Part shown: positions 22,901 to 62,317 of the stretch, one piece after another
Layout: every line of letters begins with the position of its first letter
Numbering within the stretch: the stretch's first letter is position 1
From: Octopus vulgaris
Taxonomy: Eukaryota
Reading direction: 5' to 3'
Assembly (NCBI GenBank): GCA_951406725.2
Contig: OX597832.1
Span: 71,672,001 to 71,736,000, forward strand
Length of the DNA stretch: 64,000 nt
Translations under genes and position numbers: made by a program
The notes under the pieces: generated by a model
What the model was told of the DNA's origin: nothing
The model's input: the letters and a program-made list of their open reading frames with translations, nothing else
The model's database searches: none

Positions 22901-25900
22901 TTTTCTAACAACTTTTGCAAAATGTGTTCAAATACTGGAACTGATTCCTAAACAACAAAAAGTTTAGTCACATTTTATACTTATTTGCAATTTCATAAAT
23001 TTTGTTTTATGAAAATTCCGGGATTTTAAATATTTTTATTCTTATTTGCATTATTCTGATAAATTTTGTTTAAAGAAAATTTGTGATAAAAGTTATTTCT
23101 TAGCTAAAATATGTTAACTGATATATATATATAAATATGTATAAATAAAGAAAATATTGCAAGTAAGCAGTGAGAATTAAACAAATCTCCTGAATCTAGT
23201 CTTATCATCAATCACTTAACAAGTTTTCACTTCTCACTGCTTACATAAAATATTTCAACATATTGCAATTAGGCAGTAAAAAGTGAACAAATTTGTTGTT
23301 CTAAAGTACATATAGTTATCAAAATATGTCCTAATCAATTTTCTTCACTTCTCTCTGCTTACTTGCAATATTCTGAAATATTTTAAGTGTTTATATAAAA
23401 TATTTCAAAATATTGCATTGAAGCAGTAAAAAGGGAACAAATTTATTGTTCTAAAGAACATATATTTATCAAAATATGTCCTAAACAAATTTATATCGCA
23501 AAATGTATCAAAATATTACTAATAACTATCAAATGCGATTAAATTTGTTGTTTAGAACTTATTTGCAGTATTTTCACACATTTCACAGTATTTTCACACA
23601 ATTATACAAAAGAAAATATTGTAAGCAGTGAGAAGTAAACAAATTTCTTGAATCTCATTTTATCATCAATCAGTTCACAAATTTAACCATATCACTCAGA
23701 TCAAAATATGTCCACAAATTGCAGTTAAATCGTAAAAAATTTTTCACTTCTCACTGCTTAGATAAAATATTTAAAGATATTGCAATTCAGCAGTAAAAAG
23801 TGAACAAATTTATTGTTCTGAAGAACAAAATATGTCCTAAACAAATTTCTTCAGTTCTCACTGCTTACTTGCAATATTTTTAAATATTTTAAGTGTTTAG
23901 ATAACATGTTTAGCCAGGAGATCACTCAAATCACAAAGGTTCAGTTCAAATGCTTTAAAATATTATACTTTCTAAAAACTTTTGTATAAATAAATTTGTT
24001 CATTTTACTGCTGAATTGCAATATCTTTAAATAATAATAAAAAATAAATAATAAATAATAATAATAACAATAATAATAATGATATTAATAAATAATAAAT
24101 AATAATAAAAATTAAAATTAAAAAAGAATAAAAGTAAAAATAAAAATAATAAAAATAAAAATAATAATAAAAAAATAATAATAAAAATATTAATAAAAAT
24201 ACAAATAAGAATTAAAATAATAATGAAAATAAAAATAAAAATCAAAATAAAATTTTGTTAAATTTTGTGATTTGATTGATCTTTTGGCAAAATATGTTGA
24301 TAATAAAATTATATATATCCAAGAGATCACTCAAATCACAAACATTTTTAGAAAAAATAACATATAAATACTGCAATTAAGTCCTAAAGAACAACAAATT
24401 TGTTCACTTTTTACTGCTTACTTGCAATATTTTGACACATTTTGTTTACTGAAAACTTTTCAAAATGCAAAAAAGCATTAAATTTGAACAAATTTCTTGT
24501 TTCAGATATGAAATTTTGTAATTGGAGTGGTCACATATAGTCTTATTATTACAATCAGTTAACCAGGAGATCACTCAAATGACAAGAACTTTTAAAGAAA
24601 AAGATATGTATAAATATTTCAATTAAATATTATTATTCTTATTTTGTTAAAATAAAATTTGTGATGGAAGTTATGTCTTAGTTATGTTAACTGTTAATAT
24701 CTTAAAATATTACAAGTAAGCAGTAAAATGTATATCTCAAAATTTTCACACAAAAAAATATTAATAATAAGCATAAAATGTGATTAAATTTCTTGGTGTT
24801 TAGATATTATTTGCAGTATTTTAACACATTTTGCAATTAATTTAAGAAAAATTTTATTGCAAGCAATTAGAAATAAATAAATCAATTACCAAATTTAACC
24901 AGATCACTCGGATCAAATTATGTCAACATTTAAGTCCTAAACAAATTTGTTCACTTCTCACTGCCTACTTGCAATATTTTGAAATATTTTAAAAGTGTTT
25001 TGATAACAGGAGATCACTCAAATCACAAAAGTGTTCAGAAAACAAACTAAAGAACAACATATTTGTTCACTTCGAATATTTTAAAATATTTTATTTTCTA
25101 ACAACTTTTGCAAAATGTGTTCAAATACTGGAACTGATTCCTAAACAACAAAAAGTTTAGTCACATTTTATACTTATTTGCAATTTCATAAATTTTGTTT
25201 TATGAAAATTCCGGGATTTTAAATATTTTTATTCTTATTTGCATTATTCTGATAAATTTTGTTTAAAGAAAATTTGTGATAAAAGTTATTTCTTAGCTAA
25301 AATATGTTAACTGATATATATATATAAATATGTATAAATAAAGAAAATATTGCAAGTAAGCAGTGAGAATTAAACAAATCTCCTGAATCTAGTCTTATCA
25401 TCAATCACTTAACAAGTTTTCACTTCTCACTGCTTACATAAAATATTTCAACATATTGCAATTAGGCAGTAAAAAGTGAACAAATTTGTTGTTCTAAAGT
25501 ACATATAGTTATCAAAATATGTCCTAATCAATTTTCTTCACTTCTCTCTGCTTACTTGCAATATTCTGAAATATTTTAAGTGTTTATATAAAATATTTCA
25601 AAATATTGCATTGAAGCAGTAAAAAGGGAACAAATTTATTGTTCTAAAGAACATATATTTATCAAAATATGTCCTAAACAAATTTGTATCGCAAAATGTA
25701 TCAAAATATTACTAATAACTATCAAATGCGATTAAATTTGTTGTTTAGAACTTATTTGCAGTATTTTCACACATTTCACAGTATTTTCACACAATTATAC
25801 AAAAGAAAATATTGTAAGCAGTGAGAAGTAAACAAATTTCTTGAATCTCATTTTATCATCAATCAGTTCACAAATTTAACCATATCACTCAGATCAAAAT

Positions 25901-27530
25901 ATGTCCACAAATTGCAGTTAAATCGTAAAAAATTTTTCACTTCTCACTGCTTAGATAAAATATTTAAAGATATTGCAATTCAGCAGTAAAAAGTGAACAA
26001 ATTTATTGTTCTGAAGAACAAAATATGTCCTAAACAAATTTCTTCAGTTCTCACTGCTTACTTGCAATATTTTTAAATATTTTAAGTGTTTAGATAACAT
26101 GTTTAGCCAGGAGATCACTCAAATCACAAAGGTTTTCAGAAAACAAACTAAAGAACAACATATTTGTTCACTTCAAATGCTTTAAAATATTATACTTTCT
26201 AAAAACTTTTGTATAAATAAATTTGTTCATTTTACTGCTGAATTGCAATATCTTTAAATAATAATAAAAAATAAATAATAAATAATAATAATAACAATAA
26301 TAATAATGATATTAATAAATAATAAATAATAATAAAAATTAAAATTAAAAAAGAATAAAAGTAAAAATAAAAATAATAAAAATAATAATAAAAAAATAAT
26401 AATAAAAATATTAATAAAAATACAAATAAGAATTAAAATAATAATGAAAATAAAAATAAAAATCAAAATAAAATTTTGTTAAATTTTGTGATTTGATTGA
26501 TCTCTTGGCAAAATATGTTGATAATAAAATTATATATATCCAAGAGATCACTCAAATCACAAACATTTTTAGAAAAAATAACATATAAATACTGCAATTA
26601 AGTCCTAAAGAACAACAAATTTGTTCACTTTTTACTGCTTACTTGCAATATTTTGACACATTTTGTTTACTGAAAACTTTTCAAAATGCAAAAAAGCATT
26701 AAATTTGAACAAATTTCTTGTTTCAGATATTAAATTTTGTAATTGGAGTGGTCACATATAGTCTTATTATTACAATCAGTTAACCAGGAGATCACTCAAA
26801 TGACAAGAAATTTTAAAGAAAAAGATATGTATAAATATTTCAATTAAATATTATTATTCTTATTTTGTTAAAATAAAATTTGTGATGGAAGTTATGTCTT
26901 AGTTATGTTAACTGTTAATATCTTAAAATATTACAAGTAAGCAGTAAAATGTATATCTCAAAATTTTCACATCAAAATATTTATAATAAGCATAAAATGT
27001 GATTAAATTTCTTGGTGTTTAGATATTAGTTGCAGTATTTTAACACATTTTGCAATTAATTTAAGAAAAATTTTATTGCAAGCAATTAGAAATAAACAAA
27101 TCAGTTACCAAATTTAACCAGATCACTTGGATCAAATTATGTCAACAAACAAATTTGTTCACTTCTCACTGCTTACTTGCAATATTTTGAAATATTTTAA
27201 AAGTGTTTTGATAACAGGAGATCACTCAAATCACAAAAGTGTTCAGAAAACAAACTAAAGAACAACATATTTGTTCACTTCGAATATTTTTAAATATTTT
27301 ATTTTCTAACAACTTTCGCAAAATGTGTCCAAATACTGGAACTGATTCCTAAACAACAAAAAGTTTAGTCACATTTTATACTTATTTGCAATTTCAAAAA
27401 TTTTGTTTTATGAAAATTCCGGGATTTTAAATATTTTTATTCTTATTTGCATTATTCTGATAAATTTTCTTTAAAGAAAATTTGTAATAAAAGTTATTTC
27501 TTAGCTAAAATATGTTAACTGATATATATA
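19912..27530 (+). repeat. Higher-order tandem repeat, ~2.2-2.3-kb unit, ~3.4 copies
   Basis: Anchor aaattttgttaaattttgtgatttgattgatc at 18657, 21940, 24250, 26471; marker gaaaattccgggatttt recurs four times. Confidence 0.92.
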
Positions 27531-30500
27531 TATATTATATATATCTCAAAATATTCACAAACAAAATGCATCAAAATATTACTGAGAAGCATAAAATGAT
27601 ATTAAATTTGTTGGTGTTTAGAACTTATTTCCAGTATTTTGACACATTTTGACACATTATTTTAGAAAAGAAAATATTGCAATTAAGCAGTGACAAATCT
27701 CTTGAATCTAGTCTTACAATCAATCAGTTAACAAATTTAACCAGATCACTCAGATCAAATCATGTCAACATATAACAGTTAAGTCCTAAACAAATTTGTT
27801 CACTTCTCACTGCTTACTTGCAATACTTTAAAGTATTTAAAAAGTGTTTATATAAAATATTTCAATATTTGCAAGTAAGCAGTTAGAAGTGAACAAATTT
27901 GTTCTAATGAACAAATATTTATCAAAATATGTCTAAAAGAAATATGTTTCACAAAATAATGTGATTCAAAATTTTACAAAATAAAATATTGCAAAATCAC
28001 AAAATTTTCTTAAAACAAAATTTGTCAAATTAATGCAAAGAAGCATAAAAATTGAACAAATTTTTTGTTTCGGACTTATGAAAGTTTGTGATTAAAGTAA
28101 TCGCATACATAAATATCGTCAAAAAACCATGAGATCACTCAAATCACAAAAACTTTCAGAAAACAAAATATGTATAAATATTGCATTTAAATATTTTGAT
28201 TTTTATTTGCATTATTCTGATAAATTAGTTTTATAAAAAATTGGTTATATAACTTATCTCTTAGCTAAATATGTTAACTGATCTTATATTGTATATATCT
28301 AAAAATTTTGACAAACGAAATGTATCAAAATATTACTAATAAGCATAAATTATGATTAAATTTGTTGTTTAGAACTTATTTGCAGTATTTTAACACATTT
28401 TAACACATTTAAATTTGTTGTTGTTTAGAACTTTTAGAACACATTTAAATTTGTTGTTTAGAACTTTTTTGCATTATTTTGACACATTTTGCATTATTTT
28501 GCATTATTTTGACACATTTTACAAAAGAAAATATTGCAAGTAAGCAGTGAGAATTAAACAAATCTCCTGAATCTAGTCTTATCATCAATCACTTAACAAG
28601 TTTTGCCTGATCACCCAGATCAAAATATTATTTTATGCTTATTTGCAAATTTTTCACTTCTCACTGCTTACATAAAATATTTCAACATATTGCAATTAGG
28701 CAGTAAAAAGTGAACAAATTAGTTATCAAAATATGTCCTAATCAATTTTCTTCACTTCTCTCTGCTTGCAATATTTTGAAATATTTTAAAAGTGTTTATA
28801 TAAAATATTTCAAAATATTGCATTGAAGCAGTAAAAAGGGAAAAATTTATTGTTCTGAAAAACATATTTTTATCATAATATGTCCTAAACAAATTATTTG
28901 TTTCGGACTTATGAAAGTTTGTGATTAAAGTAATCGCATACATAAATATCGTGTTATTACCACAGTCAAAAAACCAGATCACTCAAATCACTTCAAAGTG
29001 AACAAATATGTTGTTCTTTAGTTTGTTTTCTGAAAACCTTTGACTGATCTCCTGTCTAAACATATTATCTAAACACTTAAAATATTTAAAAATATTGCAA
29101 GTAAGCAGTGAGAACTGAAGAAATTTGTTTAGGACATATTTTGTTCTTCAGAACAATAAATTTGTTCACTTTTTACTGCTGAATTGCAATATCTTTAAAT
29201 ATTTTATCTAATCAGTGAGAAGTAAAAAATTTGTTTACGATTTAACTACAATTTGTGGACACATTTTGATCTGAGTGATATGGTTAAATTTGTGAACTGA
29301 TTGATGAAAAAATTAGATTCAAGAAATTTGTTTACTTCTCAGTGCTTACAATATTTTCTTTTGTATAATTGTGTGAAAATTCTGCTTTAAAATATTATAC
29401 TTTGTAAAAACTTTTGCAAAATATGTCCAAATACTGCAACTGTCCTTAACAACAAAAACTTTAATACCATTTTATGCTTATTTCCAATCTCATAAATTTT
29501 ATTTTTGAATAATCTGGGATTTTAGTGTTCTGTTGGATGTTAATAATTTACATATGTAGCCAAGAGATTACTTAAATCATAAAATTTTCTTAAAACAAAA
29601 TGTGTTGACTTTTTACTGCTTAATTGCAATATATTGAAATATTTTATCTAAGCAGTGAGAAGTGAAAAATTTGCTTAGGACATATTTTGATCAAATTGAT
29701 CTGGTGAAATTTGTTAACTGAAAGTTTTTGTGATTTGAGTGATCTCCTGGATAACTGACGATATTTATCCATGTCATCACTCCAAACCCAAAATGTAAAT
29801 TATTAACAAGATCCAAAATATAAATTATTAACAGAACACTAAAATCCCAGATTTTTCACAAAACAAAATTTATCAGATAAGCATAAAATAATATTTTGAT
29901 TTGAGTGATCTGGTTAAATTTGTTAACTGATTGATGAGAAGACTAGATTCAAGAGATTTGTTTAATTCTTACTGCTTACTTGCAATATTTTCTTTTGTAA
30001 AATTTATTGCAAAATGTGTCAAAATAATGAAAAAAAGTTCTAAACAACAACAAATTTTATCACATTTTATGCTTATTAGTAATATTTTGATGCATTTTGT
30101 TTTTGAAAATTTTTAGATATGTGTAATATATTATTAGTTAACATATTTAGCTAAGAGATAACTTATATCACAATTCTCTTTAAACAAAATTTATCAGAAT
30201 AATGCAAAGAAGAATAAAAATATTTAATTGCAATATTTAAACATATTTTGTTCTCTGAAAGTTTTTGTGATTTGACTGACTGTGGTAATCAGACGATATT
30301 TATCGCTGCGATTACTCCAACTTTCATAAGTCCGAAACAAGAAATTTTTATGCTTCTTTGACAAATTTTGCAATATTTTATTTTGTAAAATTTATTGCAA
30401 AATGTGTCTAAATACTGCAAATAAGTTCTAAACAACAAATTTTATCATATTTGATAGTTTAATCTTATTTGCAGTATTTTAGTTCTATTGCATGTTAATA

Positions 30501-31251
30501 ATTTACATAATGTAGCCAAGAGATCACTTAAATCACAAAATTTTATTAAAACAAAATGTGTCAAATTAATGCAAAGAAGCATAAAAATTGAACAAATTTC
30601 TTGTTTTGGACTCATGAAATTTTGAGTGGAGTGATCGCATGGATAAATATCGTCTTATTACTACAGTCAGTTTACCAGGAGATCACTCAAATCACAAAAA
30701 CTTTCAGAGAAAATAAACTGAAACACATTTTATTTTCTAAAAACTTTCAGAGAAAATAAACTGAACAACATTTTATTTTCTAAAAACTTTTGCAAAATAT
30801 GTCCAAATACTGCAACCAAGTCCTAAACAACAAAAAGTTTAGTCACAATATGTAGGAAAGTTAGTCATGTCAATTGAGATGCAGGAAGCGCTACAGTGGA
30901 GGCGCATTTTGAGACGGCCGAAGCAAGGCAAATTTCGATGCAAACGTTGAAAAACGAGAATTAAATACTGCTACCCTCATATTTAGGATGCATAACAGAA
31001 AAAGTGACCCCTAGAAAATATACCAACGGGCTACGACTTGATGTGGGCGGCAACAGCGGTCATTTTGATGTTGACAACATACGGGTTTTGGTGGAAAGAC
31101 GCAGGCCCATATGTTTTTTCGCTCCGATTCTACAAAAAAAATTTAACGGGCAACGCCCCCCCCTCCATCCCCACACACCGCTGCGAAGAACGCAGTAAGC
31201 AGCTAAGTGGAAAACAAAGTAACAAATATGGAATTCAAGAACAAATTTATA

Positions 31252-31980
31252 CTACATTCTCTGGAGGAACAAGCCGATACCGTCCAGTGTTGTTGGACAC
31301 TGGACGGATAGCCCTGTTAAATTGCTCGGATTCTGGTTTGGTCCAGACTCCCAGATGGAGAAGAATTGGAGCGAGGTAACGAGCAAGGTGGATGCCAATA
31401 GTACGGAAGTCGTCCTGAAAGCATCTTTTGTGGAAAGGAGGAAAGCCACTTGTGAGACGCTCCGTGTGTTGCCAGGAACCGCTAAAGATGGAGTGGGTTA
31501 ATGAGTGGGCCTTGGCTAATGATGCGCAAGCATGCGTTGAGGCTGAGACACCTCTGGTGTTACCTTGAGGATGATAAGGTGTGGAGTTCGCTGGAGGGAT
31601 TTACACCCGGTCTCATTAAAGGATGTAAACTGACTTCATGGCAGGAGTGCCGACAGGCACTCTGGCTGATCCACAAGATGGGCAAGGCCGGGAGTGGGAA
31701 TACAACCTCAGTATTCTATAAAGGGCTGGTAGAGGGAAAAAATGACGACGTCCTAGGAAGGGCTTTGGGGTTAGATGAGGATCAACTCTCCAACCTAATA
31801 AAAAGACTTTCAGGTCAGGGTATTTGGATAATTAGCAAAATCCCTGACCTGGCAGTGCTATAGGAATGCATTACCTGTTCGCGAGAAGTTATCCAGGCAC
31901 GGAATGTCAGTGCCACCGACGTGTCCAAGATGTGGGTTGGACGATGAAACCGTTTAGCACACTTTTGTACAATGGATAAA
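31252..31980 (+). mobile_element. L1/Tx1-clade LINE ORF2 C-terminal fragment inside the satellite array
   Basis: WRNKPIPSSVVGHWTDSPVKLLGFWFGPD..EKNWSEV, PWLMMRKHALRLRHLW, and zinc-knuckle-like CPRCGLDDETV*HTF. Confidence 0.75.
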
Positions 31981-33799
31981 TATTACTTGGATAACTCGAA
32001 TCACAAAAATTTTCAGAAAACAAACAAAATTGCATTTGAAATATTTTATTTTCTAAAAACTTTTGCAATATACTGCAAATAAAATCCTAAGGAAGGACAA
32101 AATTTGTTTAATTTTTATGCTTATTTGCATTATTTTGATACACTTATTTAAAGAAAATCACAAATTTTTAAAAACTATTTTGCATTATTTTGATGTGTTT
32201 TAAGGAAATTTTGATGTGTTTTAAGGAAATTTTGTGATTTGAGTGATCAAAATATGTAAACTTGATTAATAATATGATTATATATATATATATCACTCAA
32301 ATCTCAAAATTTTTACAAAACAGAATATTGAAATAAACATAAAGTGATTAATGTTTTTAGAAAACAAAATATGTACAAATATTCCCATTAAGTCCTAAAG
32401 AACAACAAAATACATGTTATTTTCGTCAGGATCATTAAGTAATGATATTGTTAATAAGCGTGCTAAGTGAATTTTTACAAATTTTGTTTACTGAAAACGT
32501 TTGAGATTTTAGTGATCTCTTGGATAAATATAGTCTTATCATCAATCAGTTAAATTTTTAGAAACAATTCAACAATAAATGAATATTAATTTATCTTCAT
32601 GGAAACAAATGAATATATTATATTCCTACTCCCATACTTCTACTGACAAACTTAAAAGTAATGAAAAATTCATAAATTTTTAAGTAGACATACACACATT
32701 ATCTCACTTTATATCCCATTTATACTGTATGAATCTTGTGTGATATGGAGCATTTTACAAGACTAATCTGATTTCTTCTGAATTTCACAATCAACAGAGT
32801 GCAAATGAAATGATTAAATTCAGGGTTTACATAGAAAATGGAAAGGCACTATTTACTATGTAATACTAGTTAATATAATGTGATATTTTAAGGTACATAA
32901 ACGAATTGGCGATGAGACGGAAAGAGAAAATTCATAGAGTAGTACAAGAAACATTGACTTTTGAGATTTTGTTACTTGTTCAATGATGTTCATTGGAATG
33001 TGGCCATGTTGGGGCACCAACTAGATAATTTAATGACATTTTATGCTTATTTGCAATATTTTGATACATTTTGTTTTGTGAAAATTTTACGATTTTAGTG
33101 TTCTATTGGATAAATATAATCTGGTTATCACTCAAATTACAAAATTTTTTTAAAACAAAATGTATCAAAATATTGCAAATAAGCATAAAATATGATTTAA
33201 TTTGTTGTTGCTTAGGACTTATTTGCAGTATTTTGACACATTTAGCAAAAGTTTTTAGAAAATAAAATATTGCAAGTAAGCGATGAGAAGTGAACAAATT
33301 TGTTGTTCTTTAGGACATTTGTTGTTCTTTTATGCTTATTTGCATTATTTTCATACATTTTGTTTTAAGAAAATTTTGTGATTTGAGATCTCTTGTTAAA
33401 TGATTGATAACAACATCAAGTCCAAGACTTACATCAAGTCCAAGAGATCATTAAATCTCAAAATTTTCAGTAAACAAAATATTACAAGTCCTAAACAACA
33501 AATTTGTTCAATTTTTATGCTTATTTGCAATATCTTGATAAATTTTGAGATTTCAGTGATTAACCGATTTAATATATTATGTATATCCAATATACATAAT
33601 ATTATCAATCGGTTAACATATTTAGCAAAGAGATAACTCAAACCACAAAATGTTCATAAAACAAAATTTATCAAAATATTGCAAATAAGCATAAAAAGGG
33701 AACAAATTTATTGTTTAGGCCTCTTTCCAATATTTTGACACATTTTGTTTTAATGTGTTACCTCCTTTTATATTTATCAAAAATGTCTTTAATATAAAA

Positions 33800-38282: not shown

Positions 38283-38397
<115 letters not shown>

Positions 38398-39435
38398 AAT
38401 TCTATCTATATATATATATATAGCGATGGAATTTCCATTCATCACTTAGGCTCTATTGCCTTTTAGTCTCTGTTTATGCAGCTGGGTATTTAACACAAGC
38501 TTATTCTTGAGGTGCCGGGCTTATTTAACTCTTAGGCGACATCAGAGCATGTCCTCTCACGACTTCGGGCTTAAGTGATGCATGTCTAATGGCCACTGGT
38601 CCATGTTTTTGTGAGCATTATGCATAAGAGCATCTTCTGCTATTTGATTCATAACTTGGGCTCTTGGCAGGTCTTGCCAGCCGGGATCAGACCGAACTCG
38701 GGAACAGTGGTGACAAAGGAATAATGCTGTGTTCCCCAAAGCTTAATGGTGTCTATTGATTTGTCATTTTTTTTCTGACGCATAAATATCTTTCTGCCTC
38801 AATCTGAGGATATTTTAGTGGCATATTTAATACCTATAGCTAGAACTATTGACATAAACTGTTTAAATTCCATGGTATGTTGCACGGAGAGAAGTTTGAG
38901 AAGAGTTCATCATGTATAGATATTTCTTAAAGTATTTCAGTGAGGCTTGTCAAAACAAAACAAAAAAAAACAAAAAAGAAAAGAAAGAAAAAAAAAGAAA
39001 ATATGGATAAGTAAGAATGCTCCTGGCAAGATTCTTAGCTACAGTTTCTTATTGGTCATATTCCCTCCCCCCCCACATGGTATTAATTATAGAATATGAC
39101 GGTTAATAATAGAATATTATAGGTGTTAACTTATACATATATTCCACATCTTTCATAAAAAAGATATGGAATATTGTTATAAATTTTGGGTTCAAGGACA
39201 ATTTGAGAATAAAATATTGATGACATCAATCACAGATTCTCCCAGCCGTAAGTCTTTATTCTCTTTATTCTCCTTCCCGGAAGTAGTTATTTGTGGGAAA
39301 TGCCTATCCGCCTCTAGCTATTTATGTATGTATGTAGGCATGTGTGAATGTATGTATGTATGCAAATATGTATGTATGTATGTATGTATGTATAGATGGA
39401 TGGATGTATAGATGTATGGATGGATGGATGGATGT

Positions 39436-39876
39436 AAGCATAAAAAAGTGATCAAAATTGCTAATTAAAATTTGTTGTTTTTAGTAATTATTTGCAATAT
39501 TTTGACACATTTTGTAGCCTGAAAACATTTGACATTTTAGTGATCTCTTTGATAAATATAATCTTATTATCAATCAGTTAACTTATATTTACCCAAGAGA
39601 TCACTCGAGTCACAAATGTTTTCAGAAAACAAAATGTGTCAAAATATTGCATATAAGCATAAAAATGTGAACAAAATTGCTAATTCATATTTGTTGTTTT
39701 TTAGTACTTATTTGCAATATTTTGACATATTTTGTAGCCTGAAAACTTTTGACACTTTAGTGATCTCTTTAATAAATATAATCTTTCAATCTGTTAACTT
39801 ATATTTACCCAAGAGATCACTCAAGTCACAAAAGTTTTCAGAAAACAAAATGTGTCAAAGTATTGCAAATAAGCAT
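39436..39876 (+). repeat. Two clean monomers (219 and 216 bp) of the palindromic repeat
   Basis: AAGCATA anchors at 39436, 39655, 39871; each monomer = inverted ~65-bp arms alternating with two different spacers. Confidence 0.9.
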
Positions 39877-39879
39877 AGA

Positions 39880-42496
39880 AACCTAGGAAACATGAAATGA
39901 AGTGGTGATGACTTCAGTCATGAAAGAGATGATGGAAGCCAGGATTTATATCAACTTTTAAATCTCTCATATATTTTATTCCTGTTAAGTAACCACTTTC
40001 ACCTCACTTTGTTATCCTTTCATTTAATCACTTACCTTCTATCCATGCCATACACAACACTACCACCAACAACTTCATTGCAGCTGCTGCTGTCACTACT
40101 ACCACCACTGCTGCCACTACCTTGTACTCTAATTTCACTCCCTATGCAATGAGAGGTAGTACTGGATCTACCTATGTTCAACACCTTCCAACATCACCTT
40201 TCTTAACTACTAGCCATTGGACTCCCTTCTCTCTCTTCCTCTCCTATAAGCATTGAAATACGAGACAAAATAATGACAATAACTACCGCTTTATTCCTTT
40301 CAGATACACTATTTACAACTAATCTCACCACTTTAGACTATATCCTATGTTGCAGTGTCTTTTCAAAAGATGATGCATGCACTTCTGTAAGATCCACTTT
40401 CTGACATATCATAAAAGAGAAGCCGATCTCCATCTTTCTGTCCATCACAAGAAATATGTGAAGGAAAAAAAAACGGTGGAGATAACTATGTCACTAGGTA
40501 TATTTACAAGGAGGGAAGAAGGAGTGAAGAAGAAGTTGTTGATGAACGAGAAATACAGTGTGTGTGTTAGTATTTGCATGAAAGATAGATAGACAGACAG
40601 TTTTCTCACCATAGTAAGTTTTGAATAAGTGCAAATCTATCAACACAATGCAACACAACTTTCACTACATAACAATAAAGATAGTTATTGCGTGTGTGTG
40701 TGTGTCTGTGTGAATGTGCTTGTGTGTGTTTCTGTATGTCTTTCAACACAGAGATGATACAACACTGACTTTTAAAAGATTTTCACTTCACCACTAAAAT
40801 GACAGGCTGTTGTAGATGATAAGAATGAGAGAAAAAGAATTAAAATCTGTTTCAAGAAAAAAAAAACAGGTTGTTGTTGATCAGACAAACATTGTGTGTA
40901 AGAGAGAGCGTCACCTCTAATTACATGTTGACAACACTAGAAAGGTTGAGTGTCACATATAATACAGTACAGTTCACATATTTGGGATAATTTTACTATA
41001 TCATCTCACATAGAGACATATACTAAGGAACACTATTCAGTTGACCGACAAAGATTCACTACAGCCATTACTTTAAAAATGTAATTTTTTTTTATATCAC
41101 CAGCTTTTCTATTACAGTTGTTAAGTACTTAAACACTAGTGCCCAAACCCATCAATGTTTTCTGCACTGCACCTACCCCTTTGTTCCACAGGCCACCAAC
41201 AATAATTGTTTTGTTAATATCTTCTGTTCCAATCCTGTTCCAGATTTCATACTCTACATCAGAATAATACTCTGTTTTCCCTCCTGTTTCTTTATACTTT
41301 GGTGTCAAAGGGGCATTTCATTACAATACATAGTTTCTTCTTGCCAATAACTACAATATCTGGCTTGTTGTGTTCTTTTCCTTTGGTTTCTAAAGAAAAG
41401 TTCCACCTCACTTTATTATTTTTGCACTCGTTTCTGTGCATGCAAAACTGAATTTCTTGACAAAATTCCAGTGAATTATCGCAACAATTTTATCACGCTC
41501 ACGCTGTTTGTATTCGTCTTATCTAACTCTATACATTCTAATACAATGTAAACAATTGTTTCTTCTGACTCATTACACATTCTGCATTTGGGAGTGCAGT
41601 CTAGTTAATCTGTCAGCTCTTGGTCCAATTTAATCATAGGAAATATACCTGTGCTTGTTTTGTATAATTGGCAGAGAAGAGTGTAATTACAAACAAGATA
41701 GGAGAGAGGCTGTTACCTTGAAAGTTTCTGCTAATCTTTTCCTTCTGATGTTAAACTCTTACTCTCCAATCTTGTTATTGCATTTTCTATTAGGCACTGA
41801 ATGCTTTTTAAGATTTTGAACAATTCTAGAAAAGAAAAAAATAGAAAAAATGGGTGTGGGGAAAGGCAGTTAATAATTGGTGTTGAGGAATTGCTGAAAG
41901 AGATAGACAAATTTATGCATCTAATAGATCAATTATTGAAAAATATATGACTTAGTTGCACACTTGTGGATCAAGCCCACCACATTGTTTGACTCAGGAC
42001 CTGTTTTGTCAAATAGATGAAGTGTGAAAAAGCACATTTAACAAATAGTGAACACACCCGTTGTTTAACAGGTACATGTGATGTACCTGTTAAAACAATC
42101 TTTTGCACTTCATGTATGGATGGTAAGCCAATGGTCATCATCACATAATTCCTTTTTTGAAAAATTTAAGTGCTCCCACAATTACTGGTAATGTAACCAT
42201 CTTCAGATGCCACATTTTTTCAATTGCAATGAGCAAATTTTTATATTTTCTAGCTTGTCAAATTCTTTTGTCGAGACATGCAATCAATTAACAAACTTTA
42301 TTGTTTTGTTCTTTCACAACAATATCCAGTTTATTAGTTTTTATGGTTCTGTATGTATACTGGGAAGTTCTTAAAAATTGTTGTTACCATTCGACCATTT
42401 GTCAACAGTTTTGTATTTTTAATGCCGACATTACGTAAAACCAGTGTTGGCCAACTCTGTCATGTCTGGTGCTAAAACTTTTCATTCAGAAATTAA
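39880..42496 (+). repeat. Direct duplicate of 55003-58010
   Basis: Starts aacctaggaaacatgaaatg and ends cattcagaaattaa in both places; long stretches identical by eye, several internal deletions in this copy. Confidence 0.97.
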
Positions 42497-42643
42497 GTGG
42501 TCCATTGTTTCAATCTCATCATTGCAGAATTGGTACTTTGACTCTACTCCATTCATGGTTATTTTCAATATTATTATCATTAATGTTATTCTTTTTATTA
42601 TTATTATTGTTGTTGTTATTATTATTGTTATTATCATTATTAG

Positions 42644-42675
<32 letters not shown>

Positions 42676-42775
42676 GTATTAGTTATTAGTATTCTTTTAC
42701 TTTGTCTTTTTCTCATCATTATTTCTATTATCAATATTATCATTAGTCTTATTGTTATTATTAATAATATTGTTA

Positions 42776-42833
<58 letters not shown>

Positions 42834-42864
42834 CATTATTATTTTTTGTAATTATTATATTTAT

Positions 42865-43218
42865 CGAAGAGATCAATAAAATCTCAAAAGTTTTCAGAAA
42901 ACAAAATGTGTCAAAATATTGCAAATAAGTGCTATAAAACAACAAATTTGAATTAGCAGTTTTGTTCACTGTTTTATGCTTATTTGCAATATTTTGACAC
43001 ATTTTGTTTTCTGAAAACTGTTGTGATTTCGGTGATCTCTTGGGTAAATATGTTAACTGATTGATAATAAGATTATATTTATCCAAGAGATCACTAACAT
43101 CTCAAAAATTTTTAGAAAACAAAATGTGTCAAAATATAGCAAATAAGTACTAACAAACAACACATTTGAATTAGCAATTTTGTTCACTTTTTGTGCTTAT
43201 TAGCAATATTTTGACAGA
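42865..43218 (-). repeat. ~1.6 monomers of the palindromic repeat, inverted relative to 39436-39876
   Basis: Spacers read aacaacaaatttgaattagcagttttgttcac and gttaactgattgataataagattatatt, reverse complements of the spacers at 39440-39600. Confidence 0.88.
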
Positions 43219-43224
43219 TGTGTT

Positions 43225-48174: not shown

Positions 48175-48940
48175 CATCGTCATCACTATCATCTGCTTTC
48201 CATGCTGTCATGGTTTAAATGGTTTGACTGGAACTGGTAAGAGAGCTGCACCAGACACCAATCTAATTTAGCATGATTTCTATGGCTAGATGCCTTTCCT
48301 AATGCCAACCACTCTGAGAGTGTAACGGGTGCTTTTTACATGCCACCAGCACGGGTACCACTTGTGTGACACAAGTAACAGCCACAACTACAGTTTTCCA
48401 GGTGCCGTTTACATAACACTGATCATGACTACAATTTCACTTGGCTTGACAAGTTTTCTCAAGCACAGAATATCACCATAGTCTTGGTTACTTGTAGTCC
48501 CATCTGTGAGACCCAACATTTGAAGACTATATGCTTCACCACTTCATCCCTCACCTCCATGAGGCCCAACGTTCAAAGATTATTCTACCAGTAATGGCCA
48601 CAATTACGATTCCATGGTTGCCAATTACATGAGACCAGCAATGGCCATGACAATGATTTCACTTGGTTTGACAAGTCTTCTCAAGCAAAGGTCTCTGTCA
48701 CTAGTCATCATCTCCATGAGGTCCAACATTCAAAGATCGTGCTTCACCACCTCATCCCATGTCTTCCTGGATCTACCTCTTCAACAGGTTCCCACCACTG
48801 TTAGAGAGCAGCATTTCTTTATGCAGCAACTCTCATCCATATGCACCATATGAGCATACTAGCACAGTTATCTCTCTTGCACACAACACCTGATGCCTCT
48901 TATGTCCAGTTTTTCTCTCGACATGCTCTGTTGCTCATGC
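48175..48940 (-). mobile_element. RTE-clade LINE 3' portion with internal repeats
   Basis: Minus strand GTC*RGRSRKTWDEVVKHDL; 3' UTR repeats and (GAT)n-like tail. Confidence 0.75.
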
Positions 48941-49019
48941 AGTGTTTTTATAAAATGGGGTGTCTAAAACAATGACGTTGAGAATGATAATAATGAGATG
49001 ACCAACACATAATCAAAAT

Positions 49020-49164
49020 AATAGAATCACCAAACAGTTTTATTTCTGATATATTCAATAATTTAATGCACACAGCTCGCTTCACCCAGTAACGTTGTTT
49101 TTCTTTACTTCGGATTTCAGTGGTAAATACAAAGTTAGTTGAGTGACCAGTCGTTGACAAATTC
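49020..49164 (-). other. Candidate terminal exon of minus-strand transcript
   Basis: Strong acceptor ttttcctttctttctttttcag|GAATTT; phase-0 reading EFVNDWSLN*; AATAAA about 120 nt downstream. 3' boundary approximate. Confidence 0.45.
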
Positions 49165-49364
49165 CTGAAAAAGAAAGAAAGGAAAATATATTTTGATATT
49201 TTCTTTTTCTTTTATCATTGGATCAATTAGAACATGTATATTCATCCGTAGTATTTTCTATACAGTATGCTATTTAGCATAATATACAGAAGATATTAAG
49301 TGTGAAAGCCAAACCAAATATATAATACTGACTGTATATCGTGAAATAATTACTTACAACTTTG

Positions 49365-50128
49365 GGATCTTTTCCTTTTGAACGGCAGATGACAACACAA
49401 TTTCTAGTTAACCTAACACTTTTAAACTTCGCATACTGGTAGAATGTGTTTATAAAACATCATTTTTTCTTGGCTTTATTGAGAAAATTCTTTAGTTTGT
49501 AAGATATTTCGTCTGAAATTTCGAGCATTTCGGCAATTTTAACCAATCGCTCATCTCCATTTGGGGTGAAAAGATTTTGTCCCTTGTTTAAGAAACAGAT
49601 TGGGTTTATTTACATTTGCGAAGAAAAAAAGATACCCTTCCCCCACCCCTAACCCTAACCCTAATCCTAAAATAGATTGAAATGCATAGATCGATACTAG
49701 GGTTATAATTATGAGTGACAATTTCATATGACACCGCTATGGAAAACGGAAATTTTTTCTAGCAGTGTCAAATGAAAATGTCACCCATAATTATAACCCT
49801 AGTATTGATCTATGCATTTCAATCTGTTTTAGGATTAGGGTTAGGGGTAGGGGAAGGGTATCTTTTTTTCTTCGCAAATCTGTTTCTTAAACAAGGGACA
49901 TATTCATACAGCACGGAATGTTTTCCCCCCAAATGGAGGTGAGTGATTGGTTAAAATTGACGAAATGCTCGATTTTAAAAATGGAAATATGTTACAACAC
50001 AGAATTTTCTCAATAAAGCCAAGAAAAAAATGATGTTTTATAAACACATTCTACCAGTATACGATGTTTAAAAGTGTTTAGTTAACTAGAAATTGTGTTG
50101 ACATCTGCCGTTCAAAAGGAAAAGATCC
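49365..50128. mobile_element. 764-bp fully palindromic MITE, GG..CC termini, 8-bp TSD (Merlin- or MuDR-like)
   Basis: TSD CAACTTTG at 49357-49364 and 50129-50136; arms GGATCTTTTCCTTTTGAACGGCAGATG.. pair over ~370 bp; (CCCTAA)-like run in each arm. Confidence 0.9.
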
Positions 50129-50454
50129 CAACTTTGTCATTATTTATGATAATTTAGGAATTTATCAAAATCTAGTGAGCTGAACATATATTGTGGAGGA
50201 ATATAAAATATTTATTGAATTAAATGTTAATCTTAAGAAAATTATATTATAAAGTCTCTTCTCCATTCAGGTAGATATATTTTTCTCTTGACATTTGCTT
50301 TGTATGAAATAATACAGACTTTTGAACATAAGCAAAAATATATATCTTCTCACTTTGACATCTGTCATCCATTTTACTTTTAAACACTTTTGAATAGAGA
50401 GGCCAAGGTCACAATTGTGTGGATATGCAAATATGCATAATAATCCTTTCTACA

Positions 50455-50635
50455 ATTGGCACATAAGCCTGAAATTTGGGGGCAGGGAAGTAGTCGATTA
50501 TATCAACCTCAGTATTTCACTGGCACTTAACTTATCAACCCCAAACGGATGAAAGGTGAAATTTGAACTCAGAATGAATGAAATGCTGCTAAGCATTTTG
50601 CCCAGTATGCTAACAGATCTGCTAGCTCACCACCT
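50455..50635 (-). mobile_element. Family-A SINE
   Basis: gtagtcgattatatcaacctcagtatttcactgg..ggatgaaagg..atttgaactcagaa..gctagctcaccacc. Confidence 0.75.
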
Positions 50636-51289
50636 TCAATAAATTCACATAATATCATTCATGCCATTCATAACAATTGCACATATACACATGCACATGG
50701 ATGCATACACATTCACACACATTTTACACACACATGTACATGCACACACACACACACAGTTCTCCAAGAGTGAAGAAAATATTGTTTCTTGCATAATTTT
50801 CAAAATTTTGTCCTCTTCTTACTTCTCCCCCACCCCCTCTCTCTCTTTGACTCTCTCCCTATTACCCTTTCTCTTCTTTCTCTTCTTCTCTCTGTTTGTT
50901 TATTTGTGTGTCTGTATGCATGTCTGTCATGTAGACACCAGGTGATTTTTTATCAAATGGTCAGGCTGTTGGTAAGTAAACTAGCAACCTTATTAAGCAG
51001 TCTTAGGAAACTAGCAACCTTACTAAGCAGTCTTAGGAAATGAAGGGGGTTATGTTAGACATTCTGTAAACTAAAGCCTATTAAAAGCTGGATGAACTCA
51101 AAGGAGGGAGACAACAGTCATCCAGCAGTAATTGTGTATGTGTGTATTTACATACAAATGGTGAATAAACCTCATAAACCTCAATGATCACATACTAGTT
51201 TGTCCTCATGTATGGTAATCTCTCTCTCTCTCTCTCATCCACTTGTGATTGAAAATTGTTTTAAGCAAGAGGATACACCACTGCCAACA

Positions 51290-51680
51290 TTGTTTGCCTA
51301 GTAGTTTGCAATGGTTTACTTGATTTCAAGATTGCTTACATGAGATCGGCATCATACACAGAACAACAGATAGGATATCAAATATAAAATGGATTGCTGT
51401 CAAAACAATGCCTTGTCATCACTAATAAGCAAATTCCTGTATACTGACAAGTGTGATCTTGTTGCTCACTCCAAGAGGGAAATGCCATATATATGAACTC
51501 CACCAGGTAAAGCCTACTCTGAGCCAAACATTTATGTGTATGGACAGAAATGTCAGGTTGTGAATAAATTCATGTATTTAAGCAATACTCTTTCCCCCCT
51601 CTCTCTTTCTCTCTCTCTCTCTGTGAATTAAAAAAGCAAGTGATGCATTTAGAAAATGCAAGAACAGGAGATTGCTGCTA
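51290..51680 (+). mobile_element. RTE/BovB-like LINE relic
   Basis: PGKAYSEPNIYVYGQKCQVVNKFMYLSNTLS resembles the RTE post-RT region. Confidence 0.55.
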
Positions 51681-51739
51681 AATACTTAAACAACAAAAGA
51701 CACAATGGAGCCCTTGGAGTTTTAAGATACAACTGTAAA

Positions 51740-52330
51740 CGTAGATTATGTCATATTTCTGTGGAAGACACCACACGTGTGATTATCAGCTGCCCAGAAA
51801 CGTCATCAAAGTTACTACCTTCCTATGGGGTATGACATGGCTGCAAAAACAATATACAATATCATCCAGAAAAAAGACTGTCCTGGAAAATCCCCTTGTA
51901 ATTGATAGAGATAAACACAAGGAATACTACAATCCCCTTCAAAACAGCTGTCAAGTGTAAATATAATGTTTGGGGCACACAAGAAAAAGTACAATCATAG
52001 AGAACAGCTGTCCTGCTGGTGTGACTATCTTTTGGAAAATCAAAGAGAAAGAGGACAACCACAGATAAATGTTTCAAAACTTTTATATCTAGACTAAATA
52101 GTCACATTTATACCACTTGGTTTTGTGAGTAAATGCCTAAGTATCAATCTGGATGAGGTAGAGCTTTCAGAAAATAAATATTAACCAGCTACTTTGTACA
52201 ATTTGTAAGAGGAACAGTAAAAATATGCAAGACATTTTTCAAATCTAAAATGTGACGTTTTTGTTTCCAACAATGGAACTTTGTATCTTTGTTAGAAACT
52301 AACTTCTACCTATGAGGAAGATTTCAAAGA
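51740..52330 (+). mobile_element. R4/Dong-like LINE 3' relic
   Basis: Diverged homologue of 61540-62190 (shared gtcatcaaagttactacc, gctttcagaaa, aaaatgtgac). Confidence 0.55.
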
Positions 52331-54589
52331 ATTAAAAACAGCAAAGAATGAATGTAGGTATGTGCACATAAACACACACACACACAGATAATCTATGGAA
52401 ACAACAACAACAATAACATTAATTATTTAAACTTTCAGTGCAGTTTCATATTTACTTTTTATGTTAAATATTTTAATGTATTTGGCTGTTGAGAGGAAAA
52501 AATGTATCTAATGTATTTGGCAGTTGAGAGGAAAAAATGTCTGAAGGTACATGCCTGTAGTTGTGGTCAGGGGAGGGAATTACTCAAGGTGTGTGGCTGT
52601 AGTTGGGGGCTGAAGGAAATAAATCCTTGAATACACAATAAAAGTAAAATAAAAGCAAAATAAAAGCACTTCAGATCCAAAGGATAAAATGTTTTTATTT
52701 ATCAGTTTCAGTGTTTTGAAAGAACCAGATAATTTTCTTTATCTTATGGATTCTTACAAACTGAAGAATATTGTGACAGAGTCAGCTGACTGTCAAGGTT
52801 ACTATGGCTGTGTTTGTGTGTGTGTGCACGCATGTGCATGCATGTGTGTGTGTGTTTACAGTACATCAAGCAGCAATCATGATGTTAGCATTTTGATACC
52901 CAATGCAAATCATGATACAGGTAACTTTTTTCCAATATTCAGATGGTTTCCAGTCCTCTATGTCAGTTAACTTTTTATCAACTACAACTTTAATCTTTAC
53001 GCTCTCCCATGCCTTGGTATAACAGAAAAGGACACTTACAATTACCGTTTTAATGATTTGTAACCCACCTAAAGTGTTTTCTACTTCTAAACAGAAGTGT
53101 TTGGCAATAGAAGAAACTGTAGATTGAGCAGATCAGGTGAACAGTATCAAGGTAATTCTGCCAGAAATATAACTCACAAAATACTTGAGATTGATATCGA
53201 ATGTGACACTTATTATGAAAAGAATACTACTAGACAGGCTGTCCATAGACAACAGGAGATACCTGGTCATCTTCCACAAAATGCTGCCAGCCAGAGTGCA
53301 TTTAGACATCATAATTCAACAACAGCATGGACCCATTTAGAAAGCTCAAAAATCCACAACACAGAATCTAGATCCGGATGTGGAAAAGAGGAGTTCCTCA
53401 ATTATGATCCTGAACATGACTAAGTTTCAGTAAAAATGGTTTCAGTGGACACCAGGTCCAAAATTTGTGACAAGAAATTTGTGACAAAAATGAAAGTATG
53501 ACTCAAATACAACGTACTGCTCCAATAGAAAAGTTCTTGATAATCTACCAGAGTGTGCTAAAAGTTTCTAACTGCTGCCACTAAGGAACCCATGCATATT
53601 TTTTAAAGACCACTGAAGCAACAACATCAGAGGAAGGAAAATCCAAAACATTTTTTAAAGTACAAGGGCAAATCTACTATGTCACTGATTCACTTTCCAA
53701 TGAAGCGACACAATTTTTTTTTTATCTATTCTGTTGATGGCAGTAAAGGGACAGGATCAGAATAGAAATATCATCATATCAAGATTTGATTTGACTAGAT
53801 TCAAGGTTTAATTTGATTCTTAAACTTCATGATATGGTCCATGCTAAGAACAGTTATGGTATTAAGATATATCAGTCCAAGCCGACAGCCTTTCCTTTGG
53901 ATACATGCTGGTGGCATGGAGAAGAGTAACAATTTATAATTGGCAAACTTTACATCAACTTCGAACCTACCCCACCACGTTCTACTAATATACAAAGGTT
54001 GATCTGGATAAGGCCTTTGATAGATTAATATTTCCAGTAGTTTGGTGGTGGCTAAGGAAAATAAAGTTAAAGAAATGGCTCTTAATGAGATGAGAGTTAC
54101 CAATGACTTCAGTCATAAATTTAGCATGGGTAGGGGTGCATCAGAGCTCAATTTTCAGCCCCTATCCATATTTGATAGCTCTTAAAGAAGACTGATTATC
54201 TATGGAAAGCTGTGAATGCTATTGAACTAATTTTTATAGCTGTATATGAAGAAAATTTAGAGAAGAAATTCCACCCATAGAAGCAAAACCTAAAATCAAG
54301 AGTAAACTCAGCATATATTAACAATTTTAGTAAGTAGGAAAGAAGACAAGCCTTTGATGAGATCAAGGAAAGTGAGTTTGCTTGATAGGTCGAAAAGAAA
54401 TAGACAGAAATTCCATAAAGTATCCTGAGTAAACTATGGACATGCAAAAGATCTTGTGGGACCACAGCAGGCTAACAGAGACAACATACTTCGTACATGC
54501 CAAATGCACAGTAAAAATACATAAAAGATTCTTTCAAATGCTGGAAAGGCTCTCTAAAGCAACTGTTATTGAGAAAGCCTAATCAATAG

Positions 54590-55090
54590 TGAAGGTGTGT
54601 GTTCAAGAAATACAGTAGCCAGAGTGAGAACCAGGTGGGCAAAGTGGTAGGGGGGGGATTACATCTGCTAGTACCTAATGGATTCTATCTTGAGCAAAGG
54701 GTAGATTGTTTGCTGCATCAGAGTGTGATAGTGCATGTTATGAATGAAACATGTGCACTGGCTTTGCAAAAAGCTAGAATAAATGCAGATATCTGCAAGG
54801 AGCAGACAGAAATGAAGCAAGCATGCTCTGCTGGATGTGTACACAAATTTGTGTAATATTATTAATGTGCATAAATGACAAATTACAAACGAGAAGAAAA
54901 GTTGGATACAAGTGTCCAAGGAAAAAGGCAATACACATATGAATATGGTATGCAAATGGAAAATAATAATTGTAGCCTTCCCCAGAAACTGGGGAAGGCA
55001 TCAACCTAGGAAACATGAAATGAAGTGGTGATGACTTCAGTCATGAAAGAGATGACAAAGGACCAGACTGAAGGAGATGTATAACTACAA
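54590..55090 (+). mobile_element. Degenerate RTE LINE fragment
   Basis: gaagcaagcatgctctgctggatgtgt (EASMLCWMC) and a broken PRKTW.EVV..KEMTKD motif across 55003-55070. Confidence 0.55.
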
Positions 55091-55931
55091 AGAAGAAAAT
55101 AGATGTTAAAATGGTGATGGAAGCCAGGATTTATATCAACTTTCAAATCTCTCATATATTTTGTTCCTGTTAAGTAACCATCTGCCACTTTCACCTCACT
55201 TTGTTATACTTTCATTTATCACTTACCTTCTATCCATGCCATACATGTAAAAAAAAACATTGGATCTACTCATGTTCACTACACAACAACACTACCACCA
55301 CCAACACCAACAACTTCACTGCAGCTGCTGCTGCTGTCACCAAAACCACTACTACCACCACTGCTGCCACTACCTTGTTGTACTCTAATTTCATTCCCTA
55401 TGCAATGAGAGGTAGTACTGGATCTACCCATGTTCAACACCTTCCAACATCACCTTTCTTAACTACTAGCCATTGGACTCCCTTCCTCTCTTTCTCTCTC
55501 TTCCTCTCCTATAAGCATTGAAATACGAGACAAAATAATGACAATAACTACCGCTTTATTCCTCTCAGATACACTATTTACAACTAATCTCACCACTTTA
55601 GACTATATCCTATGTTGCAGTGTCTTTTCAAAAGATGATGCATGCACTTCTGTAAGATCCACTTTCTGACATATCATAAAAGAGAAGCCGATCTCCATCT
55701 TTCTGTCCATCACAAGAAATATGTGAAGGAAAAAAAAGGTGGAGATAACTATGTCACTAGGTATATGTAGAAGAAGTTGTTGTTGAATGAGAAATACAGT
55801 GTGTGTGTTAGTATTTGCATGACAGGTAGTTTTCTCCCCATAGTAAATTTTGATTAAGTGCAAATCTGTCAACACAATGCAACACAGCTTCAGAAACAAA
55901 ACTTTCACTACGTAACAATAAAGATAGTTAT

Positions 55932-55992
<61 letters not shown>

Positions 55993-56679
55993 ATGTGCTT
56001 GTGTGTGTTTCTGTATGTCTTTCAACACAGAGATGATACAACACAGACTTTTAAAAGATTTTCATTTCACCACTATAATGACAGGCTGTTGTAGGTGATG
56101 AGAGAGAGAGAGAAAAAGAATTAAAATCTGTTTCAAGAAAAAAAACAGGTTGTTGTTGTTCAGACAGAAATACAGTGTGTGTGAGAGAGAGAGAAAAAAA
56201 AAAGAAGAGTGTGTGTTTGAGTGAGTGTCCATGAAAGATGGATAGGTAGTGTTGTCACCATAATAACTAATGAAACTCTCACTATATAACTGTCTACTAT
56301 TCAATGAAGGTACATGCTTGATTAAAAATTATTTTAACAGGTCAAGGAACATTAGTTTCAAAGAATAGGCTCCTCTTCAAAGCTCAAACATTGCATCACC
56401 TCTAATTACATGTTGACAACACTAGAAAGTTTGAGTGTCACATATAATACAGTACAGTTCACATATTTGGGATAATTTTACTATATCATCTCACATAGAG
56501 ACATATACTAAGGAACACTATTCAGTTGACCGACAAAGATTCACTACAGCCATTACTTTAAAAATGTAATTTTTTTTTATATCACCAGCTTTTCTATTGA
56601 TGGGTTTGGGCACTAGTGTTTAAGTACTTAACAACTGTTAAGTACTTAAACACTAGTGCCCAAACCCATCAATGTTTTC

Positions 56680-57140
56680 TGCACTGCACCTACCCCTTTG
56701 TTCCACAGGCCACCAACAATAATTGTTTTGTTAATATCTTCTGTTCCAGTCCTGTTCCAGATTTCATACTCTACATCAGAATAATACTCTGTTTTCCCTC
56801 CTGTTTCTTTATACTTTGGTGTCAAAAGGGCATTTCATTACAATACATAGTTTCTTCTTGCCAATAACTACAATATCTGGCTTGTTGTGTTCTTTTCCTT
56901 TGGTTTCTAAAGAAAAGTTCCACCTCACTTTATTATTTTTGCACTCGTTTCTGTGCATGCAAAACTGAATTTCTTGACAAAATTCCAGTGAATTATCGCA
57001 ACAATTTTATCACGCTCACGCTGTTTGTATTCGTCTTATCTAACTCTATACATTCTAATACAATGTAAACAATTGTTTCTTCTGACTCATTACACATTCT
57101 GCATTTGGGAGTGCAGTCTAGTTAATCTGTCAGCTCTTGG
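56680..57140 (-). mobile_element. R4/Dong-like LINE zinc knuckle and restriction-like endonuclease relic (also in the duplicate at ~41170-41625)
   Basis: PKCRMCNESEETIVYIVLEC, IIHWNF, HNKPDIVVI. Confidence 0.75.
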
Positions 57141-57233
57141 TCCAATTTAATCATAGGAAATATACCTGTGCTTGTTTTGTATAATTGGCAGAGAAGAGTG
57201 TAATTACAAACAAGATAGGAGAGAGGCTGTTAC

Positions 57234-57342
57234 CTTGAAAGTTTCTGCTAATCTTTTCCTTCTGATGTTAAACTCTTACTCTCCAATCTTGTTATTGCAT
57301 TTTCTATTAGGCACTGAATGCTTTTTAAGATTTTGAACAATT
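57234..57342 (-). other. Candidate 109-nt internal exon (duplicate at ~41717-41825)
   Basis: ttttcttttctag|AATTG..TTCAAG|gtaaca; best frame IVQNLKKHSVPNRKCNNKIGE*EFNIRRKRLAETFK contains one stop. Confidence 0.5.
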
Positions 57343-57649
57343 CTAGAAAAGAAAAAAAATAGAAAAAATGGGTGTGGGGAAAGGCAGTTAATAATTGGTG
57401 TTGAGGAATTGCTGAAAGAGATAGACAAATTTATGCATCTAATAGATCAATTATTGAAAAATATATGACTTAGTTGCACACTTGTGGATCAAGCCCACCA
57501 CATTGTTTGACTCAGGACCTGTTTTGTCAAATAGATGAAGTGTGAAAAAGCACATTTAACAAATAGTGAACACACCCGTTGTTTAACAGGTACATGTGAT
57601 GTACCTGTTAAAACAATCTTTTGCACTTCATGTATGGATGGTAAGCCAA

Positions 57650-58010
57650 TGGTCATCATCACATAATTCCTTTTTTGAAAATTTTAAGTGCTCCCACAAT
57701 TACTGGTAATGTAACCATCTTCAGATGCCACATTTTTTCAATTGCAATGAGCAAATTTTTATATTTTCTAGCTTGTCAAATTCTTTTGTCGAGACATGCA
57801 ATCAATTAACAAACTTTATTGTTTTGTTCTTTCACAACAATATCCAGTTTATTAGCTTTCATGGTTCTGTCTGTATACTGGGAAGTTCTTAAAAATTGTT
57901 GTTACCATTCGACCATTTGTCAACAGTTTTGTATTTTTAATGCCGACATTAAAACCAGTGTTGGCCAACTCTGTCATGTCTGGTGCTAAAACTTTTCATT
58001 CAGAAATTAA
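57650..58010 (-). mobile_element. R4/Dong-like LINE endonuclease relic
   Basis: RHDRVGQHW, FPVYTDRTMKANKLDIVVK (frameshifted), MWHLKMVTLPVIVGAL. Confidence 0.8.
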
Positions 58011-58299
58011 AATAGATATAAGGTCAATAACCGAGAGGTTTTCAGTTCGAATCGCATGCGTCTCGAGATGGGCTAGAGAATTTCTATTTTGGATATATTT
58101 GAAGTGTTTGCTTCTGCCAAGGGTATAAATAAGTATTTCTTTTGAACTAACTCTGAAATCAGGATTTTTTAGAAATTTCTGTCGGCTTTCTTCAAAACGC
58201 ATGCTTGTAGTGATAAATTACATGGTTATTGACGTTATGTCTATTTTCGGCTATTTTGGGTAAGCTAGGAGATGAATGGCAGCCAGCAGCATAGAAATG

Positions 58300-62286: not shown

Positions 62287-62317
<31 letters not shown>

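Follow-up and report, generated by a model that had tools for sequence, protein, structure and literature searches.

The closest described systems to the locus reported here are gap-filled Pack-TIR transposons, palindromes rearranged at their center (PATRRs) and the Tetris foldback element. In PMC8277862, 57% of the Pack-TIRs have a donor less than 15 kb away, and the single-copy cases, formed by gap filling independent of transposition, share with our locus the presence of one copy, a donor on the same chromosome, a short microhomology and a break in a fragile repeat. Ssk-FB4, from the same source, combines microhomology at one end with new bases at the other, as seen here. PATRRs (PMC7999016, PMC8701086) resemble our locus in having AT-rich inverted arms of several hundred base pairs, an asymmetric center and a putatively stabilizing spacer; palindrome products are described there as mostly small central deletions, spacer inclusion being called uncommon, and PMC262683 is cited there for breakage at the center. 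Tetris, with its TIR-220 (PMC4079207), likewise carries AT-rich ~220-bp modules in inverted arms and is satellite-related.

The locus departs from each of these systems. Unlike those of the Pack-TIRs in PMC8277862, its flanks are satellite modules, no convincing TSD or transposase was found at it and its cargo is a pseudogene intron. Since the flanks are not a TIR transposon, the locus works like the single-copy Pack-TIRs (PMC8277862) but is not a member of the group. Relative to the PATRRs of PMC7999016 and PMC8701086, it has a 3-kb filler and arms that are 90% alike and 75% AT, and breakage is presumed here. Tetris as presented in PMC4079207 has defined flanking TIR domains and complete TSD-flanked copies, whereas none were found here, and the resemblance is one of outline only.

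By the window we mean the whole 64,000-nucleotide stretch of octopus DNA that was analyzed, C19:71,672,001-71,736,000, which ends 56 kb short of the end of this 71.8-Mb contig in a 2.8-Gb genome. In the window sequence, a left arm is followed by a cargo, a TTA-rich filler and an inverted right arm. The features, in window coordinates, are the following:

18667..33751, no strand assigned: patchwork array next to the locus, 15 kb long, with modules that belong to the arm family and are more degenerate
39319..39435, no strand assigned: TATG/GATG microsatellite adjoining the left arm
39436..39877, plus strand: left arm, two 219-bp satellite-derived modules and a few bases, 75% AT
39872..39880, plus strand: left junction, where 4 bp (GCAT) are shared with the donor as microhomology and three bases then replace one
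39880..40945, plus strand: part of the cargo next to the left junction, with 33 substitutions over 1027 columns and the majority of the indels
40946..42552, plus strand: distal stretch of the cargo, with 8 substitutions over 1547 columns as far as 42496
41717..41825, minus strand: candidate 109-nt cryptic exon, cargo copy, with AG and GT both preserved and stops in every frame
42553..42858, plus strand: TTA-rich filler, 306 bp, no counterpart at donor or paralog
42859..43219, minus strand: right arm, inverted modules starting in a hairpin loop, the left arm's best match (88-90%)
48329..63806, minus strand: dynein heavy-chain pseudogene, 3' part, a segmental copy of C19:35.08-35.13 Mb
55003..58010, plus strand: donor segment, an intron of the pseudogene, ~15 kb from the cargo
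57234..57342, minus strand: cryptic exon, donor copy, AG and GT present

The original prediction had described this arrangement as repeat monomers, a copy of 55003-58010, a TTA tract and monomers in the opposite orientation. The structure is real and is bridged by contigs from independent runs. Its order stood, and its boundaries had to be amended: the cargo is ~55 bp longer (to ~42552), the TTA tract measures 306 bp and the right arm occupies 42859-43219. One contig of run X4 (organism B) spans 39841-40130 with a single mismatch, crossing the left junction as well as several deletions specific to the cargo. A cargo-specific 202-bp deletion is spanned by contigs in both X4 and X10 (organism D), and the right outer junction (43078-43370) by contigs in X2 (organism A) and X8 (organism C), so that each of the four runs compared carries at least a piece of the arm-cargo-arm structure. 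It is hardly conceivable that an assembly artifact produced it, even if palindromes trouble long-read sequencing (PMC8701086) and none of the contigs listed crosses the TTA tract to bridge the inner right junction. Three cargo-specific junctions recur in independent runs under four organism labels, and the cargo (39880-42496) aligns with the donor with 41 substitutions in 2574 columns (98.4% identity) and 20 indels. The occurrence of cargo-specific junctions under four organism labels also suggests that the duplication is likely older than the split of organisms A-D. For the donor stretch, only cargo-type and paralog-type alleles were present among the X4 contigs listed and depth dropped at 54400-54687, although such contigs cannot show absence. 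The genome search returned the cargo, the donor and one old paralog only, with no second arm-cargo-arm copy, and neither flank had a paralog spanning the insertion site.

The left junction had been read as aagcat-aga-aacctagg against aggcat-c-aacctagg in the donor, and the sequence is exactly so. A 4-bp microhomology is expected in ~6% of cases by chance for a match this long with slack and is not significant alone. At the outer ends, where no TSD had been seen by eye, we found no direct repeat of at least 7 bp; a 5-bp GATGT does lie beside both ends, the left one being the last unit of the GATG microsatellite. The 306-bp filler has no source at the donor or the paralog. At the distal end of the cargo, 42072-42382 is a fragment of a dispersed repeat present in many copies, and no clear reading frame was found in the repeat at 42072-42552. 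The last ~55 bp of the cargo, missing from the donor today, have their match in an older paralog at C19:35.12 Mb, which indicates that the donor lost them after copying. The donor also carries a specific 32-bp insertion (window 56599-56632) that is the reverse complement of adjacent sequence, as in a snap-back templated insertion.

The substitutions are unevenly spread, at 3.2% near the left junction and 0.5% distally (Fisher p 1.2e-7). The older copy at C19:35.12 Mb served as the outgroup for polarizing changes between cargo and donor. Of the 33 changes in the first kilobase, 12 are ambiguous and 21 can be polarized; 16 of these 21 arose on the cargo side (p 0.027), and the donor likewise carries derived changes there. 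Site 40261 is common to cargo and donor here and ancestral in the X4 cargo-type contig. Gene conversion that later affected the distal part could also have produced the gradient. A sister-allele test of distal conversion gave no support, with two of three distal sites sister-derived and the third not polarizable; one proximal site gives a hint of it.

Each 219-bp monomer of the arms consists of a ~55-bp asymmetric spacer and a ~165-bp predicted hairpin, the prediction for the monomer having a z score of -10.3 (0 of 200 shuffles were as good). The arms are unequal in length and pair at 90%, with 34 mismatches in 343 columns, leaving unpaired ~95 bp at the left arm's inner end and ~18 bp at the right arm's outer end. 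They are each other's best match, matches elsewhere reaching 78-86% and the neighboring array 74%. The window holds further structures around that array. Unique DNA at 15352-18106 and 38029-38932 is inverted on either side of the 15-kb module array and forms a larger mirror structure, in which the duplicate is 98.9% identical over 369 bp and long AAT/TTA tracts lie at the joins. A 1.85-kb A-rich low-complexity tract (window 15721-17572) sits between the copies of an exact 53-bp direct duplication and resembles de novo synthesized filler, and window 18661-27521 contains four tandem copies (93-99%) of a 2.3-kb unit made of an AAT tract and modules.

The locus is a one-off 2.7-kb copy of a pseudogene intron between two inverted blocks of satellite modules. 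It probably originated when an older imperfect satellite palindrome broke near its center and the break was healed with a copy of nearby DNA, no transposase being involved. The divergence of the arms (10%), compared with 1.6% between cargo and donor, suggests that the inverted pair likely predates the cargo. The two arms would once have stood nearly head to head in a ~0.8-kb palindrome; no cargo-free allele was present among the 15 joints listed of 122, and this pre-insertion palindrome is therefore one that we infer. Formation of a hairpin or cruciform may have broken it near its center, with ~95 bp lost or lacking on one side of the break. The polymerase would then have switched template to DNA 15 kb away, and the copied DNA together with the TTA-rich filler would have closed the break by joining the hairpin loop of the right arm. 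Error-prone early synthesis may have left the excess of changes in the first kilobase, which is consistent with PMC4937565, and the long spacer may afterwards have stabilized the palindrome. A template nearby in cis and a single copy, as in gap filling, are both found here. Of the two alternatives originally offered for this locus, the second, repair within a repeat array with a template 15 kb distant, agrees with the evidence. Known repair chemistry acting in an unusual host repeat would explain the locus, and the product of the repair is probably inert.

A different order of events seems rather unlikely: duplication of the cargo would have come first, or have been part of a single multi-template event, and the arms would have been patched on separately as satellite fillers without ever forming a central palindrome. 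The unequal arm lengths would suit it, as would five isolated 110-240-bp family fragments in unrelated DNA (C3, C14, C18, C20 and C23), which indicate that modules do get inserted as fillers. However, two fillers of independent origin should not match each other best and stay in register for 343 columns, and at 74% the arms were not copied from the neighboring array.

The other alternative in the original prediction was a foldback-like element capturing host DNA, analogous to Pack-MULEs. This is not supported: we found no conserved termini, no dispersed family, no transposase among 94 ORFs and no further copy, and the repeat itself is satellite DNA. As in Pack-MULEs and Pack-TIRs, the interior is non-TE sequence with a parental copy (donor 55003-58010, 98.4%), but the matching transposon ends of a TIR element are absent, the arm ends being ~18 bp out of register and the parent being a tandem satellite. 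Neither a dispersed family nor a transposase partner was found in the family loci and the window: among 94 of the 143 ORFs from these sequences, no DNA-transposase family was present, the matches being to retroelement domains and a PIF1 fragment. The same observations bear on a non-autonomous foldback DNA transposon of the FB or Tetris kind, inserted here with captured DNA and mobilizable by a transposase, which we regard as quite unlikely. The long modular inverted arms are those of such an element, their ~220-bp modules resemble the TIR-220 of Tetris (PMC4079207), the arms match each other best and GATGT stands beside both ends. Yet the GATGT on the left belongs to a microsatellite, the two arm ends do not stand in register, the family is clustered, its parent is a tandem 141-bp satellite, no transposase occurs among the 94 ORFs, and the cargo with arms has no second copy. 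A conserved outer domain and several complete TSD-flanked copies, as FB and Tetris have, were not found, and the other family loci lack common termini: in the 12 arrays read, the family array ends at arbitrary monomer positions. All 16 exact matches of a 32-mer fell at known family loci.

Capture of a Helitron or Penelope type is very improbable. A PIF1-helicase fragment does lie in the window, at 3960-4922, but it is 35 kb distant, and the TC/CTRR motif of Helitron ends was absent at the cargo and arm boundaries by reading. Introns were kept in the copy, and window 12000-60000 gave no Rfam match, hammerheads included, at the gathering score. The PIF1-like fragments at 3960-4922 are probably a Helitron relic.

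Whether other inverted pairs of the repeat enclose duplicated host DNA had been put forward as a test of a capturing element, and on the loci compared its outcome was negative. The spacer changes orientation 65 times in 9 of the 22 stretches; outside the window, seven of the flips are gapped, and in none of these is the gap filled with unique local DNA, a genome-wide search of the filler having been made for the C32 flip only. Family modules occupy three of the seven gaps. In the other four the filler is a short tandem unit, (AT)n or dispersed repeats, and these last fillers are mutually unrelated. Two further candidates for capture were rejected: a same-orientation gap on C10 had no donor, and an inverted pair 17 kb apart on C17 belongs to a nest of subtelomeric foldbacks that also contain pieces of LINEs. 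On C14 (30.232-30.240 Mb, L062-L063), a 3-kb family foldback with 99% identity surrounds a 1.5-kb (AT)n center. A ~2-kb many-copy dispersed repeat occurs at L077:4300-6150, its halves being mutually inverted in other copies, and a short rDNA-derived piece lies among the modules on C32 (L077:7103-7481).

The arms are 77-87% similar locally to a 141-bp tandem satellite with a predicted hairpin of its own (z -5.9). Judging from these alignments, the 219-bp monomer is a rearranged form of this satellite, and it looks derived from the satellite rather than the reverse. In genome searches the family was clustered and not dispersed. Arrays of at least ~1 kb occurred at one site each on at least 15 chromosome-scale contigs, plus one small contig; among the matches listed, the array contigs were C7, 10, 11, 12, 14, 16, 17, 19, 20, 23, 26, 27, 28, 29 and 30, with no family cluster on other large contigs. 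Examples of these parent-satellite arrays are:

C30:13.466-13.482 Mb
C27:15.829-15.856 Mb
C23:49.556 Mb
C17:29-48 kb

Five of the 15 chromosome clusters adjoin assembly gaps. The arrays that begin at the gap on C27 and on C30 are homogeneous (95%), and those of C27 decay outward into modules resembling the arms of our locus. A core 22-mer had 135 exact matches in the assembly, the reversed control none. Summed contig depth, which is not a copy number, was 7e4-4.5e5 in arm bins and ~3-140 in unique bins, and this excess points to a large collapsed satellite, one that would be largely collapsed in, or missing from, the assembly. Telomeric TTAGGG tracts adjoin or lie near family arrays (L047:5270-6640; C17:20-60 kb), being interstitial on C7 and C20 and accompanying nested foldbacks at the start of C17, and an 18S rRNA gene copy is next to the C14 array (L062:681-2833).

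The pattern of clusters raises a possibility that we hold tentatively and at somewhat less than even strength. The arms may come from the edge of a centromeric 141-bp hairpin satellite whose one-per-chromosome relic clusters mark centromeres, here at the end of C19, and whose palindromes would be sites of recurrent breakage, healed with fillers that include host DNA. The dyad-rich centromeric satellites of PMC5889037 and the macro-dyad satellites of Tribolium (PMC13081366) are, like this one, abundant and AT-rich, contain a hairpin and have arrays that are often inverted. Compared with the satellites in these two papers, the inversion sites here are heterogeneous and not conserved, and the centromere role is that of a candidate. 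One cuttlefish genome paper asks for centromeric satellite probes (PMC13218726). Openly accessible papers yielded no description of an octopus centromeric satellite or of the 141-bp satellite, although the repeat library in the supplement of a genome paper may already contain it. The 141-bp unit and its at least 15 mapped clusters provide predicted centromere positions and a direct basis for a FISH or CENP-A test, which makes the parent satellite a more important lead than the locus itself.

The donor lies in a decayed gene. An intact-looking dynein heavy-chain gene has six Dynein_C exons at C19:35.109-35.132 Mb, and the window holds an inverted copy in which three Dynein_C exons have no match, one lacks ~65 nt and the last is frameshifted. 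The original prediction had noted a candidate exon in the cargo. Both splice sites are indeed kept in both copies, but each of the three frames of the exon contains stops, in the donor as in the paralog, the cargo copy being identical to the donor's, and it is not a dynein exon. In the intact gene the segment sits between consecutive dynein exons for PF18199 positions 123-159 and 156-195, and from its reading frames and position the candidate is a non-coding cryptic exon. The suggested route to exon duplication is therefore weak, the donor being a pseudogene intron and the exon being non-coding and inside an intron of the intact gene. What the locus provides is a well-dated natural gap-filling duplication, with fragile flanks from a satellite palindrome and not from a transposon, and with no new coding exon.

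The cryptic exon may be spliced in RNA. Among the records listed, no RNA record contained the locus; the runs treated as putative RNA were assigned by guess, have depths of 2-4 and may hold DNA. A contig of one such run, X14 (depth 2.3), matches 57267-57344 without a difference and continues with 106 other bases past the acceptor AG at 57344. The nearest upstream exon of the pseudogene, at 60404-60326, ends in AG, which makes the donor copy the likelier source of this contig. Cargo-allele contigs in X11 and X16 are low-depth and unspliced and may be DNA. The cryptic exon may stand in for the three deleted dynein exons. The subtelomeric dynein pseudogene itself runs on to ~27 kb outside the window.
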